NCBI GenBank assembly: GCA_038214755.1
Contig: JBBQRQ010000053.1
Span: 1-34,416, forward strand
Reading direction: 5' to 3'
Origin: Verrucomicrobiota bacterium
GTDB lineage: Bacteria; Verrucomicrobiota; Verrucomicrobiia; Limisphaerales; CANJXF01
Length of the DNA: 34,416 nucleotides
Positions 1-15,000 of this stretch are shown here, piece after piece (position 1 is the stretch's first letter; each line of letters starts with the position of its first letter). A program made the position numbers.

Positions 1-3000
1 CTCCTGAATCGTGCCGTCTTCGCCGAAGGTTCCGTGCAACGCGAGAAAAACAACGTCTGTTTCTCCAGGCAACGACCAGATCGTTTCGACCGGATCAAGT
101 TCGCGGACGTGATGTCCGAGCGAACGCAAGGCTTTCGCCACGGCAGCTCCCGTTCGCAGAGAAACTTCGCGTTCTGCGGATGAGCCGCCCAGCATCACTG
201 TGATATTTAATTTTTCAGACATGAAAAATGTTTTTCCCCGGGTAGCATCTGCCTCTGGCGGGTGCGTGAACACTTCCGTTTTTTCCGTGAGAAAAACGAA
301 CGCCGCGACAAATCTTTTCGCACCCGCCAGAGGCAGATGCTACCCCGTCGAAAGGCTTTCGCCGCCGCCGCTCCCGTTCGCAGAGAAACTTCGCGTTCTG
401 CGGATGAGCCGCCCAGCATCACTGTGATATTTAATTTTTCAGACATGGAAAAAAAATATCCCCGGGTAGCATCTGCCTCCGGCGGGTGCGTGAACACTTC
501 CCGTTTTTCCCGGGAGAAAAGTGAACACCGCGACAGGTCTTTTCGCACCCGCCAGAGGCAGATGCTACCCGGGGAAAGGCTTTCGCCGCCGCCGCTCCGG
601 TGCGCAGAGAAACTTGGCGTTCGGCGGAAGAGCCGCCGAGCATCACTGTGATATTTAATTTTTCAGACATGGAAAAAAAATATTCCCCGGGTAGCATCTG
701 CCTCCGGCGGGTGCGTGAACACTTCCCCTTTTTTTTCCGGGAGAAAAGCGAACGCCGCGACAAATCTTTTCGCACCCGCCAGAGGCAGATGCTACCCGGC
801 GAAACACCCTCACGATTCACCTCCGACAATTTCCACCTCGGTGCGCAACTCAATTCCGCGAGCGGCTTTGGCGCGTTGTTGAATCAACTCGATCAAATCC
901 AAAACATTTTGCGCGGTCGCACTGCCGTCGTTGACGATAAAATTCCCGTGAACCTCCGAGACGCTCGCGCCGCCGACCCGAGTTCCTTTGAGACCAAGTT
1001 CGTCAATCAATTTGCCGACGGGAATGGTGGCGGGATTTTTAAAAATGCAACCGGCGCTCGGCTCTTTCGGCTGCGATTCCCAGCGTTTGGCGCTGAACGT
1101 TTTCATTCGTTCCGCAATGACTTCACTCGACGCCTTTTCACCACGAAGAGTAGCGGACAACGCGATTTGATTTTTCAACAACGGACAACTGCGATACTCG
1201 ACGGCGATCTCGCTGCGCTTCAATTCCTGAATTTCTCCGGCCCGATTCATCACGCGAATTTTTTCCACGACATCGAACATCGCGTCGCCCATCGCGCCGG
1301 CATTCATGCGCAACGCGCCGCCGACATTTCCGGGAATGCCTTCGAGAAATTCCAGACCGGTCAGACTGTTTTTTCGCGCTTCGACGGAAACGGTTTTCAA
1401 CTTTGCTCCCGCGCCGCACTGCAAAAGTTCTCCATCGACTTTGATCTGAGAAAAATTTAGATGGCCCAGGGAAATCACGAACCCGCGAAGGCCAGAGTCT
1501 TTGATCAAAAGATTGGAGCCGCGACCCATCACAAAAAATGGCAATTCTTTTTCGGCGCAAAATTGGAGGACGCGCGCGAGGTCGGATTCGGAAACCGGCT
1601 CAACGTAAAAATCGGCCGGCCCGCCAACACGCAGCGTCGTCTTTTTCGCGAGCGGTTCGTCGCAACGCAAAATGGTTTGTGGCGAAAGTTTTTCAGCCAA
1701 CTCAGCGGCGAATTGCTCTTTGGAAATAGCGAGCGTTTCAAACATGGGCTGCCTCCGATTTGCGCCGGTTCAGTATTTCCGAAGAGCAGCGCGCCCCGAT
1801 GTAGGGCAGGCTTTCGAGCCTGCCAGTTACGAAACTTTCCAGTTTCGTTAAAATTATTGGAGATCGTTTCGCCGGGACTGGAGAGTCTCTTCGCTTTCCC
1901 GGGACTGGAAAGTCCCCGCAACCGGCAGGCTGGAAAGCCTGCCCTACGAATTGCTTTTTGGAAATAGCGAGCGTTTCAAACATGGGCTGCCTCCGATTTC
2001 ATCCGGTTCAGCGGCTCTGAAAACACAACGTTCTTTTTCGAGGAATTTTCCAACGCGCGTTTTGAGGCCGGCTCCGAAATCGTGGAGAGAATAACGTCGG
2101 CGATTTCTCCAGCGGCATCGGGCGAATGCCATTGACTCAGCGCGGCTTTAATCCTCTTCCGCTCTTTTTCGTTTTCGATCAACTCGATAACGGCGCGGGA
2201 AAAATGTTCCGCCGTCGCGCCGGATTGCTGGAATATTTTGGCCGCGCCTGAATCGACGAAAGCCAGCGCGTTGTAAAATTGATGGTCATCGGTCGCGAAC
2301 GGATACGGAATCAAAATGGAAGGAAGCCGCGTCGCCGCCAACTCGGCGAGCGAAGAAGCGCCGGAGCGGCACACGGCAATGGTCGCCGCGCTGAGAGCGA
2401 GTTCCATTTCGGTCAGCAGCGGACGCACGACTGCTTTTCGATTTTCCGCAGCGTAGGCGTTTTGGATTTTTTCAAAATCGCTCGTCCCGGTCAGATGCAA
2501 AAATTGCAAGTCGGGCAAATGCGCGGTGAGACCGGGCAAGGCCGACAAAACTAAATTGTTGATTCCGGTCGCGCCCTGGCTTCCGCCCATCACGAGCAGC
2601 ACTGGTTTATCGGGTTGGAGTCCCAGCGCGATCCGCGCCGCGGGGGGGTCAATCGGCTCGGAAAATTGCGAGCGCACTGGCATGCCGGTCACGCGGGCGC
2701 GAGCAATGTTCATCCGGCCCGACGCTTCGTGGAAATAAACAAATGCTTCATCGACAACATGCGCGAGCCAGCGATTGGCGCGACCAGGAATGGAATTCGA
2801 CTCGTGCAAAAAAGTTTTCGCGCCCAAAATTTTTCCCGCGAGAATCGGCGGCGCGCTGGTGAATCCGCCCATGGCCAGAACGGCTGATGGAATTTTTTGT
2901 CGAAAAAGTTTTTGGACGGCGCGGTAGGATTTTGAAAAGCCAAAAACGAATCCTAATAAACTGCCGCGCGCCAGTCCGACCGCTGGTAACGTCACCACAT

Positions 3001-12000: not shown

Positions 12001-15000
12001 CGGGGGCGCGCATGAAAAATTTTATTTTTAGCTGAAGAAATTTTATTTTTCACTCTCGCCCTAAAACTGATTGGCGGAAAAATTGCCGCCGGTTTCTCCT
12101 CGCGCTCCAAACTTGTTCCCGCGGCAATTTTTTGTGTCTTGTCGTGGAGACGGGAGGTGGGCGCAGGACCGGAGTTTGATTCAGGCGAAAGAAGCTGAGC
12201 CGGCGTTTGCGAAGCAACCGTGGCGGCTTGCTTTACCTCTGCGCTTTCTGCGGTGGGCGCAGGAGAGGAAGGTTGAACCCGCGCGGCAAACTTCGGCAAT
12301 AAACTTTGCTGACTGAGTTTATATTTGCCGGAGACATTTTTCCCCTCTTCCAAACTTTGGCCGACGGTCAGGAGTTTCATCAGGTTCATATTTATTCCAT
12401 CATCTTGAACGCTTCGTGCGCCATGACCGCGTCGGACGCTTTCACTGACGCGAAACGTTTCGGGTTCCAGATTTCAAATCGGTCGAGCAACCCGACCAGC
12501 GTCGCTTGATCTTCGATGTCGGCGGCTTTGGCCATTTCTTCCGGCAAACAAATTCGCCCGCCTTTGTCCACGGCGACCTGGACGGACTCAGCGCCAATAA
12601 AGCGCTTCAAAACCACTTTGTTCGGGTTGTCGGGTGACATCGCTTCGATGTCGTCCATCAATTGAGCCATCTCCTTGGGCGGGAGGGCGCGAAGACAAAT
12701 TCCCGCTTTATCTTTCGGCCAGACGATCAAGGTGAATTCAGTTTCAGAAGTCGAAGGGCGCCATTTGGCGGGAATCTGGACACGTCGCTTTTGATCGACC
12801 CCGTGCAGGTAGATCGAATTGTAATAGCGCGTCTGCTCAGTTGTTGATTCTCGCCCCATAACTCACTTTATTCACCGATCTATTGACCCACTTTGACCCT
12901 TTTCGCGACACTTCATGCCATTACGTTTTTAAATGGTCAAGCACTTTTGCTATGAAAGTTATTGGAAAGTTATTCACACAAAAGAGGGGCGGACAGGATT
13001 CATATTGCATATGCAACATCAATTCGGCACCGGAGCGCCGGTTTGTAACCGGCTTAACCTCTGCGAATTGACTCAAAGCCGGTTGCAAACCGACGCTCCG
13101 TCGCGGGAAAAATTTTATCGAAAATGCGTTCGATGATGGGCGTGAGAAAATGTTTTCGAGCAGCGAAAACGAACGCTACGTTTCTGGCGCGATGCGAACG
13201 CTGGACTTCGATTATTTTTTGCCGCCGGAATTAATCGCGCAGATGCCGGCGACCAAACGCGATCAATCGCGCCTGCTGGTTTTGAATCGAACCAGCGAGG
13301 AAATTTTCCACGGCGCTTTTCCCGATCTGCTCGAAAATTTATTTCCCGGTGATGTGCTCGTATTGAATGACTCGCGAGTGATTCCAGCGCGTCTGCGCGG
13401 CATGAGTGAGAGCGGCGGAAAATTCGAGGCTCTTTTGCTCACGGAAAATCACACCAACGATTGGTGGGCGATGTTGCGGCCAGGAAAACGCCGACAGGTT
13501 GGAACAAAAATAAATATTTTAGCGGCGGATGGAACTCATTCTGGAATTTCGGCCATCGTAAAAGAAATCAATCGCGAGGGACATCGGCGAGTTCACTTTG
13601 CCGGAACGCCAAACATTTTTCTTGAGCTTGAACGGTTCGGAGAAATTCCGTTGCCGCCGTATGTCGAACGCAATGAGCTTCTGCAATCTGATCGAGAACG
13701 TTATCAAACAGTTTACGCGTCTCGCGCCTGCGGGCCCGGATCAATCGCCGCGCCGACGGCGGGACTTCATTTCACGAATGAGTTGCTGGAAAAAATAAAA
13801 CGGCGCGGTGTGGAGATTTGTTACGTCACTCTGCACGTCGGTCTCGGCACGTTTGCGCCGGTGAAAGCAGAGGCGCTCAACGAGCACGTGATGCACGAGG
13901 AATATTTTGAAATCACAAGCGCGACGGCGAAGGCGATAAACGAGGCGAAGGAAAAAAAACGCCGGGTGATTGGGGTAGGCACAACCAGCCTGCGCGTTTT
14001 AGAAAGTGTTGCCGCTGAAAATTCCGGCTGGTTGATCGCCACGAAAAACAAGACCAAAATTTTCATTCATCCGCCTTATCGATTTCAAATCGTCGATGCG
14101 CTCCTCACGAATTTTCATCTTCCCCGCTCCACTTTGCTGATGTTGGCGAGCGCGTTCGCGTCGCCCGGAGAAACGCGCGGTCGCGAAATCATTTTGTCCG
14201 CCTACCAAACGGCCATTGAAAAGCGCTACCGTTTTTTCAGTTACGGCGACGCGATGTTGATTGTTTGAAAGTGCATCCAGAACGTAATGAGTCATCGACC
14301 GATAAAACGAACTGGGGTAGCATCTGCCTCCGGCGGGTGCGAAAAGAATTTTCAAGTAAAACTTAAGAACCGCACCCGCCGGGAGGCCCTATCATTACCC
14401 ACATCCTTCATGCGGGTTTCTTCAATCCTGAAAGGATTGGTATCACTTAGCCCAGGGTTGCGAGGCACGAGCTACCCCGGCTGCGGCTCTGAAATTTTAT
14501 TTGGTAAAAATTCTTTTCGCACCCGCCGGAGGCAGATGCTACCCGGTCAACTTTGAACTTCCGCCCAGCGCGCGAAAAGCCAGAGCGTATCGGACAATCG
14601 ATTGAGGTAGATGACGATTTGAGGATTCTGCAATTGATTCGTTTCCTGCAAAGCACAGACACGACGTTCGGCACGGCGACAAGTGGTCCGCGCCACATCG
14701 AGTGCGGCGGAATTTAAATTCGCCCCCGGCGTGGCCCAACCTTTGAAAGAAATTTTTTGCGACTCAATTTGTTGAACCAGTGCATCCAGTTTCTTTGTGA
14801 GTTTTTCCGAAACGATCGAATAACCGTCCTTCACGTAACGCGGCAAATCTTCGACTTGCGTCGCCAATTCCCCCATGAGGACAACCAAGTCTTTTTGAAT
14901 GAGTAGTAAATTTTCCCGGACAAAATCGTGTTGCGCTGTCGCGCGCGCCAAGCCGAGGGCGGCATTTAATTCATCGACCGCTCCATAGGCTTCGACGCGA

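Follow-up and report, generated by a model that had tools for sequence, protein, structure and literature searches.

Textbooks list the genes for MurC, MurD and MurE as essential, and they serve as antibiotic targets. In Escherichia coli and Psychrobacter arcticus, stem peptides are recycled through AmpG or MppA-Opp, AmpD, LdcA and Mpl, and Mpl is described there as a non-essential side entry beside MurC to MurE. Acinetobacter baumannii recycles with ElsL, a leaderless YkuD protein that replaces LdcA, and a preprint places ElsL orthologues in all Verrucomicrobia orders. A MurB/C fusion appears in Verrucomicrobium spinosum and Opitutales in two reports (PMC4803751, PMC5303756). Fidelibacter multiformis IA91 (Fidelibacterota, Marine Group A, class AB16) builds its wall from exogenous muropeptides; it makes no MurNAc, D-Ala, D-Glu, DAP or lysine, requires muropeptides for growth and is coccoid without them (PMC11652737).

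Here we analysed the dcw operon of a Limisphaerales genome (CANJXF01, Verrucomicrobiota; G000), a bin of 175 contigs that is 97% complete. Like the E. coli and P. arcticus loop, G000 has the Mpl motifs, importers and a putative LD-carboxypeptidase, but AmpD and LdcA are missing and Mpl appears to be the only entry. As in A. baumannii, a leaderless YkuD protein may take the place of LdcA; A. baumannii, however, keeps the full series MurC to MurF. T. forsythia (Tannerella), which has reportedly lost MurA and MurB, is a mirror image, with sugar steps missing there and peptide steps missing in Limisphaerales; as a MurNAc auxotroph it takes wall precursor from outside, as in the salvage reading below. 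IA91 is the nearest precedent, and the likeness to it is that of a free-living diderm without de novo wall-precursor genes that keeps recycling genes (PMC11652737). Unlike IA91, Limisphaerales belong to a different phylum, keep MurA (149/151 genomes) and MurB, and lose no more than the three ligases, in many cases along with MurI; the DAP pathway is retained in G000, and no muropeptide need is reported for Limisphaera.

Methods

The window is the whole 34,416-nucleotide stretch of G000 that was analysed. Mur ligases were sought with PF08245 and by tblastn, for which the MurC, MurD and MurE proteins from relatives served as queries. The order sample comprised 151 Limisphaerales genomes, each at least 90% complete, and 70 genomes from the class outside Limisphaerales were given the same MurE search. 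Genomes in which this search found no MurE are called murE-negative (81/151 in the order) and the others murE-positive (70/151). The Alr search covered five genomes.

Results

Structure of the dcw operon

The operon runs ftsI-murF-mraY-lysM-ftsW-murG-murB-ddl on the minus strand. Its last gene leaves the window and is continued, through an exact 141-bp overlap, by contig C131, where ftsQ-ftsA-ftsZ follow. The features are:

1..221, minus: ddl, 5' part (rest on contig C131)
222..809: ~224-nt repeats, palindromic REP-like elements, in which the ddl start recurs as two abortive copies
810..1745, minus: stand-alone murB (TIGR00179, 227.6 bits)
1746..1975: empty murC slot, containing a palindromic REP-like element; the murB start is duplicated here over 65 nt
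1976..3208, minus: murG (PF03033 and PF04101; start set by alignment to G001)
3175..4302, minus: ftsW (TIGR02614, 365.4 bits, cut-off 337.5)
4605..5312, minus: LysM-domain protein (PF01476, two stretches)
5475..5504, minus: murD deletion scar (its start codon overlaps the mraY stop, and a stop follows after nine codons)
5504..6658, minus: mraY (TIGR00445, 339.7 bits)
6957..8330, minus: murF (TIGR01143, 393.9 bits, cut-off 288.6; catalytic motifs intact)
8330..8332: empty murE slot (ftsI stop adjoins murF start)
8332..10233, minus: ftsI, PBP3 (SxxK, SxN and KTG motifs present)
10301..10696, minus: putative ftsL-like ORF, from position and one hydrophobic stretch
10754..11719, minus: rsmH (mraW; PF01795, E 3.7e-108)
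11703..12389, minus: 228-aa ORF in the mraZ-rsmH slot, with homologues in relatives with and without murE
12392..12859, minus: mraZ (PF02381)
15061..16161, minus: Amidase_3 N-acetylmuramoyl-L-alanine amidase (PF01520, E 9.5e-51)
19750..20748, plus: zinc peptidase with weak MpaA likeness (NF007897, E 2.9e-5, far below cut-off)

Pfam and NCBIfam searches gave no match for the ftsL-like ORF or the 228-aa ORF, and the latter had no usable Atlas match. The LysM-domain gene is a regular operon member across Limisphaerales. One 23-mer of the REP-like element is present 52 times in the genome.

The contiguous operon without murE, murD and murC that had been noted in a preliminary description was borne out at each of the three positions. 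The murF start lies only 2 bases past the end of ftsI, so that there is no room for murE, which occupies this slot in relatives G022, G038, G039, G051 and G055. The murD scar reads as an ATG overlapping the mraY stop, followed by FALENKKF and a stop; it matches the murD start MIALENKKV of congener G003 and also that of congeners G001 and G005, and the mraY-to-lysM distance is ~1,600 bp in these three murD-bearing congeners against 230 bp in G000. In G038 and G039 a MurC-MurB fusion occupies the murB slot, of which G000 keeps only the MurB half, and tblastn of the murC slot finds no MurC remnant.

Intermediate operons in relatives indicate that MurC was lost first and that MurE and MurD decayed afterwards: some have murD and murE without murC, and G061 has murE only. 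The stepwise loss proposed earlier is upheld, except that full-length murD remains in many murE-less relatives and not in just two genomes. Within Limisphaerales, MurD and MurE lose their catalytic motifs, and catalytically dead MurD remains under constraint. On trees, murE undergoes at least seven changes and its losses look recurrent.

Ligases and wall-building machinery of the genome

PF08245 matches three genes of G000, namely MurF, Mpl and FolC; the absence of MurC, MurD and MurE therefore stands, while FolC had been left off the earlier list of MurF and Mpl only. Across the genome, tblastn of the three missing ligases returned just these genes, the murD scar and matches of E 0.01 or weaker. 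Of the canonical MurA-F pathway, MurC, MurD, MurE and the glutamate racemase MurI were not found in G000, the last as previously claimed. Alr was likewise not found in G000, where the three PF01168 matches are YggS, LysA and a 372-aa PLP enzyme that we read as resembling D-threonine aldolase, but its loss is not general, since Alr is present in the murE-less genomes G119 and G132.

Mpl of G000 scores 464.8 bits against TIGR01081 (cut-off 388.7) and 317.9 against the MurC model TIGR01082, under its cut-off of 335.1. Its conservation, also noted before, was confirmed, with 57-92% identity to G000 in 20 relatives and unchanged motifs. PMC3060825 gives these as (S/T)AFFDKRSK and the C-terminal peptide-site motifs HH, EPRSNT and SNG; AFFDKRSK, HHP, EPR[ST]NT and SNG are kept in 13/13 murE-negative and 8/8 murE-positive genomes aligned, with the variant EPRTNT in 4/21 order sequences, G000 among them. 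The searches support Mpl as the sole remaining ligase predicted to load peptide onto UDP-MurNAc, with stepwise tripeptide synthesis apparently gone.

The remaining machinery is retained. G000 has MurA (546.9 bits, cut-off 392.7), MurB, MurF, Ddl, MraY, MurG and MurJ, together with DapA, DapF and LysA, and catalytic motifs are kept in MurF, MraY, MurG, Ddl and FtsI. MurF motifs are intact in all murE-negative rows shown in the alignment and FtsI motifs in 31/31, while PBP2 and FtsI were found in 30/30 chosen genomes.

Distribution of the loss in Limisphaerales

MurE was found in 70/151 order genomes and in 69/70 from the rest of the class, which agrees with the earlier claim that its absence is widespread in the order and rare elsewhere in the class (missing in 81/151 and 1/70, respectively). 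Its presence or absence largely follows families. About half of this free-living order has lost the three ligases. Near-closed genomes G059 (2 contigs), G119 (7) and G132 (10) each have three PF08245 matches (MurF, Mpl and a weak FolC-sized match), compared with six in closed G055. Mpl exceeds its cut-off in 143/151 order genomes. A MurI-type racemase is present in 1/81 murE-negative and 40/70 murE-positive genomes.

Salvage and recycling genes

G000 encodes two OppA, OppBCDF and an AmpG-like permease, none of which reaches its named-family cut-off (167.9 against 350 for the AmpG-like protein with TIGR00901). Its recycling set comprises NagZ, AnmK, a MurQ fusion, two PBP4, three amidases and a leaderless YkuD protein, and it carries exported wall hydrolases; the Amidase_3 protein of the window could release stem peptides. 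LdcA was not found in G000. The YkuD protein (C79:243-812), with no evident leader by eye, is a candidate ElsL-like LD-carboxypeptidase on the basis of its domain, missing leader and distribution. Cytoplasmic AmpD was not found in G000 (best E 6.6e-3 with the E. coli query), the two Amidase_2 proteins having export-type N-termini by eye, and Amidase_2 matches are lacking in both G119 and G132.

AmpG-like proteins occur in 37/81 murE-negative against 1/70 murE-positive genomes and LdcA in 43/81 against 5/70, although Fisher tests on such counts overstate significance because kin share genes. Neither Opp (65/81 against 59/70) nor LdcA or ElsL-like proteins taken as alternatives (75/81 against 62/70) are enriched; six of the 81 have neither LD-carboxypeptidase, and the two occur together in just 6/151 genomes, a near mutual exclusion. 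All 81 murE-negative genomes have Opp, an AmpG-like protein or OPT. Opp and AmpG-like are both missing in seven of them, including all four of genus g18; there OPT, common in the order (92/151), fills the importer gap only on paper. The search for genes that regularly adjoin mpl, ampG or ldcA found none.

Discussion

We suggest, with a little more confidence than doubt, that these bacteria make their wall by peptide salvage with Mpl as the sole entry, probably as an optional and not an obligatory activity. MurA and MurB make UDP-MurNAc. Stem peptides and muropeptides of other bacteria or their remains would be freed by amidases and DD-peptidases and imported via Opp, the AmpG-like permease or perhaps an OPT transporter. 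The ElsL-like enzyme (LdcA in many relatives) would trim them to L-Ala-gamma-D-Glu-mDAP, and D-Ala released from imported tetrapeptide would be available to Ddl, a candidate answer to the D-Ala source that had been left unexplained. Mpl would then ligate the tripeptide; Ddl, MurF, MraY, MurG and MurJ can carry the product to flipped lipid II, and FtsW/FtsI and RodA/PBP2 can polymerise and cross-link it. Because self-recycling alone gives no net wall growth, the peptide must come from outside; wall would be added when peptide is at hand, and cells would otherwise grow almost or entirely without cross-linked wall. A weak L-Ala activity of Mpl, together with recycling, may have made MurC dispensable first, after which MurE and MurD would have lost substrate-binding and catalytic residues before being deleted.

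The difficulty lies with Limisphaera. In genus g18, which is placed as Limisphaera, MurC, MurE, Opp and AmpG are missing from 4/4 genomes, whereas MurA, Mpl, MurF, PBP2 and FtsI are kept. Limisphaera appears to share the three-ligase loss. Its isolates can be grown axenically on a mineral medium of sugar and salts to which no yeast extract is added. As they do so without a peptide supply, cells can probably grow wall-poor; growth is, however, best without NaCl, which on mineral medium is difficult to reconcile with so little wall. This leaves two options, an optional wall or an undescribed peptide route. The earlier statement that a scavenged tripeptide must be ligated stands in part: the sole entry through Mpl is supported, and the importers, the candidate LD-carboxypeptidase and the gene distribution favour scavenging, but obligation is not established.

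An undescribed enzyme set might instead make free L-Ala-gamma-D-Glu-mDAP, or something similar, de novo for Mpl to load. Such a route would be older than the losses and is hence expected in murE-positive genomes as well; we consider it unlikely. Growth of Limisphaera on mineral medium, with the gene content of g18, speaks for it, as do the retained DapA, DapF and LysA, the recurrent murE losses expected from an ancestral bypass and the few families that the ligase searches spanned. Within those families, however, no shared substitute ligase was found: near-closed genomes hold no extra Mur ligase, PF13535 and PF08443 reveal no extra ATP-grasp enzyme in five genomes each, and ORFs of NRPS size are present in G119 yet absent from both G000 and G132. 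GGT is missing in G119 and G095 and enolase-type epimerases in G119, mpl, ampG and ldcA lack a conserved neighbour, loss of the MurI-type racemase with murE leaves no evident D-Glu source, and the gains of AmpG-like proteins and LdcA are not predicted. The broader proposition, that Limisphaerales without MurC, MurD and MurE still assemble a cross-linked wall when the medium offers no peptide, by an undescribed route off the UDP-sugar or a new stem chemistry, with Mpl loading, is a minority possibility to which we give real weight.

A short or non-DAP stem, in which L-Ala (or L-Ala-D-Glu) is attached by a side activity of Mpl and extended with D-Ala-D-Ala directly by MurF, would yield a variant of lipid II and a glycan whose cross-linking is weak or different. 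Such a side activity is needed in the genomes that have kept murD and murE without murC, and in G061, and L. ngatamarikiensis is reportedly described with DAP in traces only. We nevertheless find both the pathway and its product distinctly improbable: Mpl and MurF peptide-binding motifs are the same in murE-positive and murE-negative genomes, DD-transpeptidases with intact motifs require an amine acceptor absent from such a stem, and LD-carboxypeptidases, whose substrates are normal tetrapeptides, are kept. Still harder to credit is a lineage abandoning peptidoglycan, its leftover genes being relics or serving a non-wall role in division. The cultured members are cocci, class A PBP was not found in G000 and three other genomes searched, and the constraint on dead MurD means that conservation alone is no proof of activity; yet class A PBP is missing in murE-positive G055 too, MurA, MurB, MurF, MraY, MurG, Ddl, FtsW, FtsI and PBP2 are kept order-wide with motifs intact where checked, MurD and MurE lose motifs while other wall enzymes keep theirs, and recycling genes appear gained rather than lost. 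Genes left on missing contigs, as a fragmented and incomplete bin might suggest, are refuted in practice by the contiguous operon with its murD scar, the repeated absence in genomes of 2, 7 and 10 contigs, and a MurE presence that largely follows families under a search that succeeds in nearly all other class genomes.

Loss of the three ligases in about half of an order that retains sugar synthesis and both of its wall-building machines has one of three meanings. If peptide salvage is correct, scavenging of wall peptides would be far commoner than the single cultured precedent indicates and could help to explain why the lineage has few cultured members. If the wall is optional, it would be dispensable in a free-living diderm, and if an undescribed route operates, bacteria would for the first time have a bypass of the Mur-ligase ladder that does not depend on donor cells. 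The cultured Limisphaera type strains make the question directly testable.

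Loss of murC, murD and murE

The dcw operon on contig C53 of the genome studied here (G000; 5.1 Mb, 97% complete) runs mraZ, an ORF without assignment, rsmH, ftsL-like, ftsI, murF, mraY, lysM, ftsW, murG, murB and ddl, and an exact 141-bp overlap joins it to contig C131, which continues as ddl-ftsQ-ftsA-ftsZ. Its MraY is 58-77% identical to proteins of named relatives, mostly labelled Verrucomicrobia and including Limisphaerales, Pedosphaera and subdivision 3; on this basis we assign the genome to the order Limisphaerales. The preliminary description of this operon as one lacking murC, murD and murE was borne out at each of the three positions. 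Only 2 bases remain at the murE position. At the murD position there is a scar, in which a start codon overlaps the mraY stop and nine codons match the murD start of congeners, and the mraY-to-lysM stretch measures 230 bp against approximately 1,600 bp in those congeners. The MurC half is missing from murB, whereas MurC and MurB are fused in two relatives (G038 and G039; G and L numbers denote relative genomes and their loci).

Several other features of these operons were recorded. The low-complexity ORF between mraZ and rsmH (11703-12389) keeps its position across the order, and family and Atlas searches gave no match to it. Palindromic REP-like elements occupy gene junctions at window positions 150-810 and 1709-2011 alongside duplicated gene starts (the ddl start three times at a spacing of about 224 nt, the murB start twice); genome-wide, one REP-like 23-mer has 52 copies and another 24. 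Some relatives, both with and without murE, have a SIMPL/DUF541 gene between murE, or the empty murE slot, and murF (e.g. L005:11890-12639 of congener G001), which is absent in G000. The operon L024 of G022 has murC and lacks murB in its slot, and this genome encodes a lower-scoring MurA type (about 1e-136) that a few other genomes also have.

Members of PF08245 in G000 were restricted to MurF, Mpl and FolC, and tblastn with the MurC, MurD and MurE proteins of relatives added solely the murD scar. The earlier statement that MurF and Mpl are the only Mur ligases therefore stands as to the absence of the other three, although FolC also belongs to the family. Across 151 genomes of the order, each at least 90% complete, MurE was detected in 70, a count that slightly overstates working MurE because the P-loop lysine is gone from decayed MurE proteins, as compared to 69 of 70 genomes in the rest of the class. 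The Mpl model scored above cut-off in 143/151, and a second, MurC-level match was present in 52/70 murE-positive and 4/81 murE-negative genomes; in the latter four, Mpl matches are partial and the pattern suggests one gene broken across contigs. A bin of 97% completeness might have left the genes on missing contigs, an explanation to which we attach negligible probability: near-closed genomes of 2, 7 and 10 contigs have the same three-gene complement, as opposed to six in a closed murE-positive genome, which in practice excludes an assembly or binning artefact. The operon gap is thus a real loss, as initially proposed, and the loss of MurC, MurD and MurE is order-wide.

Order and history of loss

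Among the 72 loci whose operons were mapped, some were intact and others fell into a series of reduced states.

Reduced operon states among the 72 mapped loci
murC gone, murD and murE kept: G012, G047, G062, G069, G104, G114, G139
Only murE left in the operon: G061
murE decayed: G016, G023, L035, L055, L057
Only murD left: five congeners, G010, G029, G030, G033
murD fragments: G013, G019, G020
None of the three left: G000, G018, G025, G059, G119, G132

In every murE-negative operon that was complete across the slot, murC was also missing. Retained MurD proteins lost the UDP-MurNAc-L-Ala-binding motifs first and catalytic residues later, residue roles being assumed from E. coli MurD, and evolve no faster than neighbouring genes (G001/G005 dN 0.057 at pS 0.52). 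These sequences fit a pseudo-enzyme phase before deletion. Repurposing as a free-dipeptide ligase merited consideration, since the ATP and D-Glu sites persist in congeners, which have lost the UDP-MurNAc-Ala motifs and show a dN similar to that of neighbours. We rejected this reading, as the P-loop and carbamylated lysines are missing from G003, the losses go further in G010, G029 and G030, and the gene is deleted in G000. Locus L165 of G061 combines a murE with intact motifs and an operon without murC or murD; here Mpl could possibly load L-Ala-D-Glu for MurE.

Parsimony on a 63-row tree, for which seven of the 72 loci were left out for too few genes and then two more (L098 and G018), required a minimum of 7 changes for murE and 8 for murC. 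The trees suggest several losses, but neither AU test excluded one murE-negative clade (p 0.071 and p 0.056), and hence a single origin; we make no claim of repeated independent loss. The unpublished genome G009 enters only a 41-genome tally and no claim depends on it.

Recycling genes and possible peptide sources

Importers encoded by G000 comprise two OppA, OppB/C/D/F, an AmpG-like permease and an OPT transporter beside one oppA. Its recycling set consists of NagZ, AnmK, a kinase-MurQ fusion, two PBP4, amidases of two families and a leaderless YkuD protein; such proteins are described as recycling LD-carboxypeptidases (ElsL) of Acinetobacter, and Verrucomicrobia are reported to have orthologs. 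A 794-aa amidase and a 799-aa PBP4, with export-type N-termini and extra domains, are candidate attackers of foreign walls. A second, partial AmpG-like gene (G000:C39:43203-43562) lies at a contig end near murA.

Genes detected in murE-negative and murE-positive genomes, respectively
AmpG-like permease: 37/81; 1/70
LdcA: 43/81; 5/70
ElsL-like protein: 37/81; 58/70
Any PF01177 racemase: 17/81; 44/70
MurI-like subset of PF01177, sorted by score and length and not by tree: 1/81; 40/70

The two carboxypeptidases, LdcA and the ElsL-like protein, occur together in only 6/151 genomes. Alr was not found in G000 and G059 and is kept in G119 and G132; D-Ala freed by trimming of imported tetrapeptide may explain its absence in the former pair. 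An enolase-family epimerase of G000 (G000:C128:160-1194), nearest to DgcA and YcjG and below both cut-offs, has a possible link to D-Glu; the family is absent in G119.

Favoured and alternative explanations

The murE-negative genomes show no change in MurF motifs, the three FtsI motifs are kept in 31/31, and those of MraY, MurG, Ddl and FtsW match as often in murE-negative as in murE-positive rows. The Mpl family motif and peptide-site motifs are likewise kept in both groups, MurA is present in 149/151 order genomes, and PBP2 and FtsI in 30/30 chosen genomes. Because all of these are retained, the lineage looks, from its motifs, equipped to process a normal tripeptide but unable to assemble one stepwise. 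A short or non-DAP stem would dispense with the missing ligases, but we consider this quite improbable as the motifs of Mpl and MurF give no sign of changed specificity. That the pathway is a relic is a still fainter prospect, given the conserved motifs of its later enzymes and the near-universal MurA. An undescribed de novo route to the stem peptide would also account for the loss, and we judge it unlikely, since no shared substitute ligase emerged from the few families and few genomes covered (PF13535, PF08443, AMP-binding, GGT, epimerase; CofE, GCS2 and FemAB lay outside the screen). PF13535 searches yielded nothing besides Ddl in G000, G119 and G132, whereas in G059 one 1,088-aa match accompanied Ddl; PF08443 gave only weak matches (E 3e-4 or weaker) in five genomes. 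NRPS-sized AMP-binding ORFs were found in G119 and none in G000 or G132; GGT occurred in three of five genomes searched and an enolase-type epimerase in four. Neighbourhoods of mpl (21 loci), ampG (8) and ldcA (11) contained no conserved neighbour beyond the gene itself.

With modest confidence, we favour a reading in which peptide is salvaged through Mpl and the wall may be optional. Such salvage resembles the Mpl-based recycling loop of E. coli, here promoted to sole entry, and the reliance on foreign wall pieces of Fidelibacter IA91. This lineage is not of the IA91 type because it keeps MurNAc synthesis and because its dependence on such pieces is putative.

Class A PBPs (PF00912) were not found in four of five genomes searched (G000, G119, G132 and the closed, murE-positive G055), the fifth, G059, giving two short matches; SEDS/class B pairs may be the only wall polymerases of the order. 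The mpl and PBP2 genes of genus g18 (G025:C23, G095:C1) lie on opposite strands, 3-4 kb apart.

The Limisphaera paradox

Opp and the AmpG-like permease are both absent from seven murE-negative genomes; all seven have OPT-family transporters, which are candidate importers only. Four of them constitute genus g18, which we treat as Limisphaera because one of its members, G025, has a MurF placed with 100% support within the MurF proteins assigned to Limisphaera by NCBI. MurE, a MurC-level match and a PF01177 racemase are absent from all four g18 genomes, which retain MurA, Mpl, LdcA and both PBPs; murD is also missing from the two operons mapped. Two Limisphaera isolates are cocci and were grown as pure cultures on sugar-containing mineral medium; no yeast extract was supplied, and growth was best with no NaCl (PMC13608581, whose passages on these isolates do not discuss the wall genes). 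Obligate scavenging is untenable for such cultures if the loss extends to their genomes, which the four g18 genomes suggest at genus level only. The proposal that the lineage must ligate a scavenged or otherwise made tripeptide is thus retained for Mpl as sole entry in the favoured salvage reading, and not for obligate scavenging. In L. ngatamarikiensis, DAP is reportedly present only in traces and a wall layer is not visible. Opitutaceae, with a DAP content described as roughly tenfold below that of E. coli, still yielded sacculi (PMC5303756), and low DAP alone is therefore no proof of a missing wall.

No report of Mur-ligase loss in this order appeared among the literature matches listed, and other papers or supplements may already mention it. 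The additions made here are the murD scar, the decay order with its residue evidence, the AmpG/LdcA/ElsL pattern and the Limisphaera paradox, which makes the loss testable.
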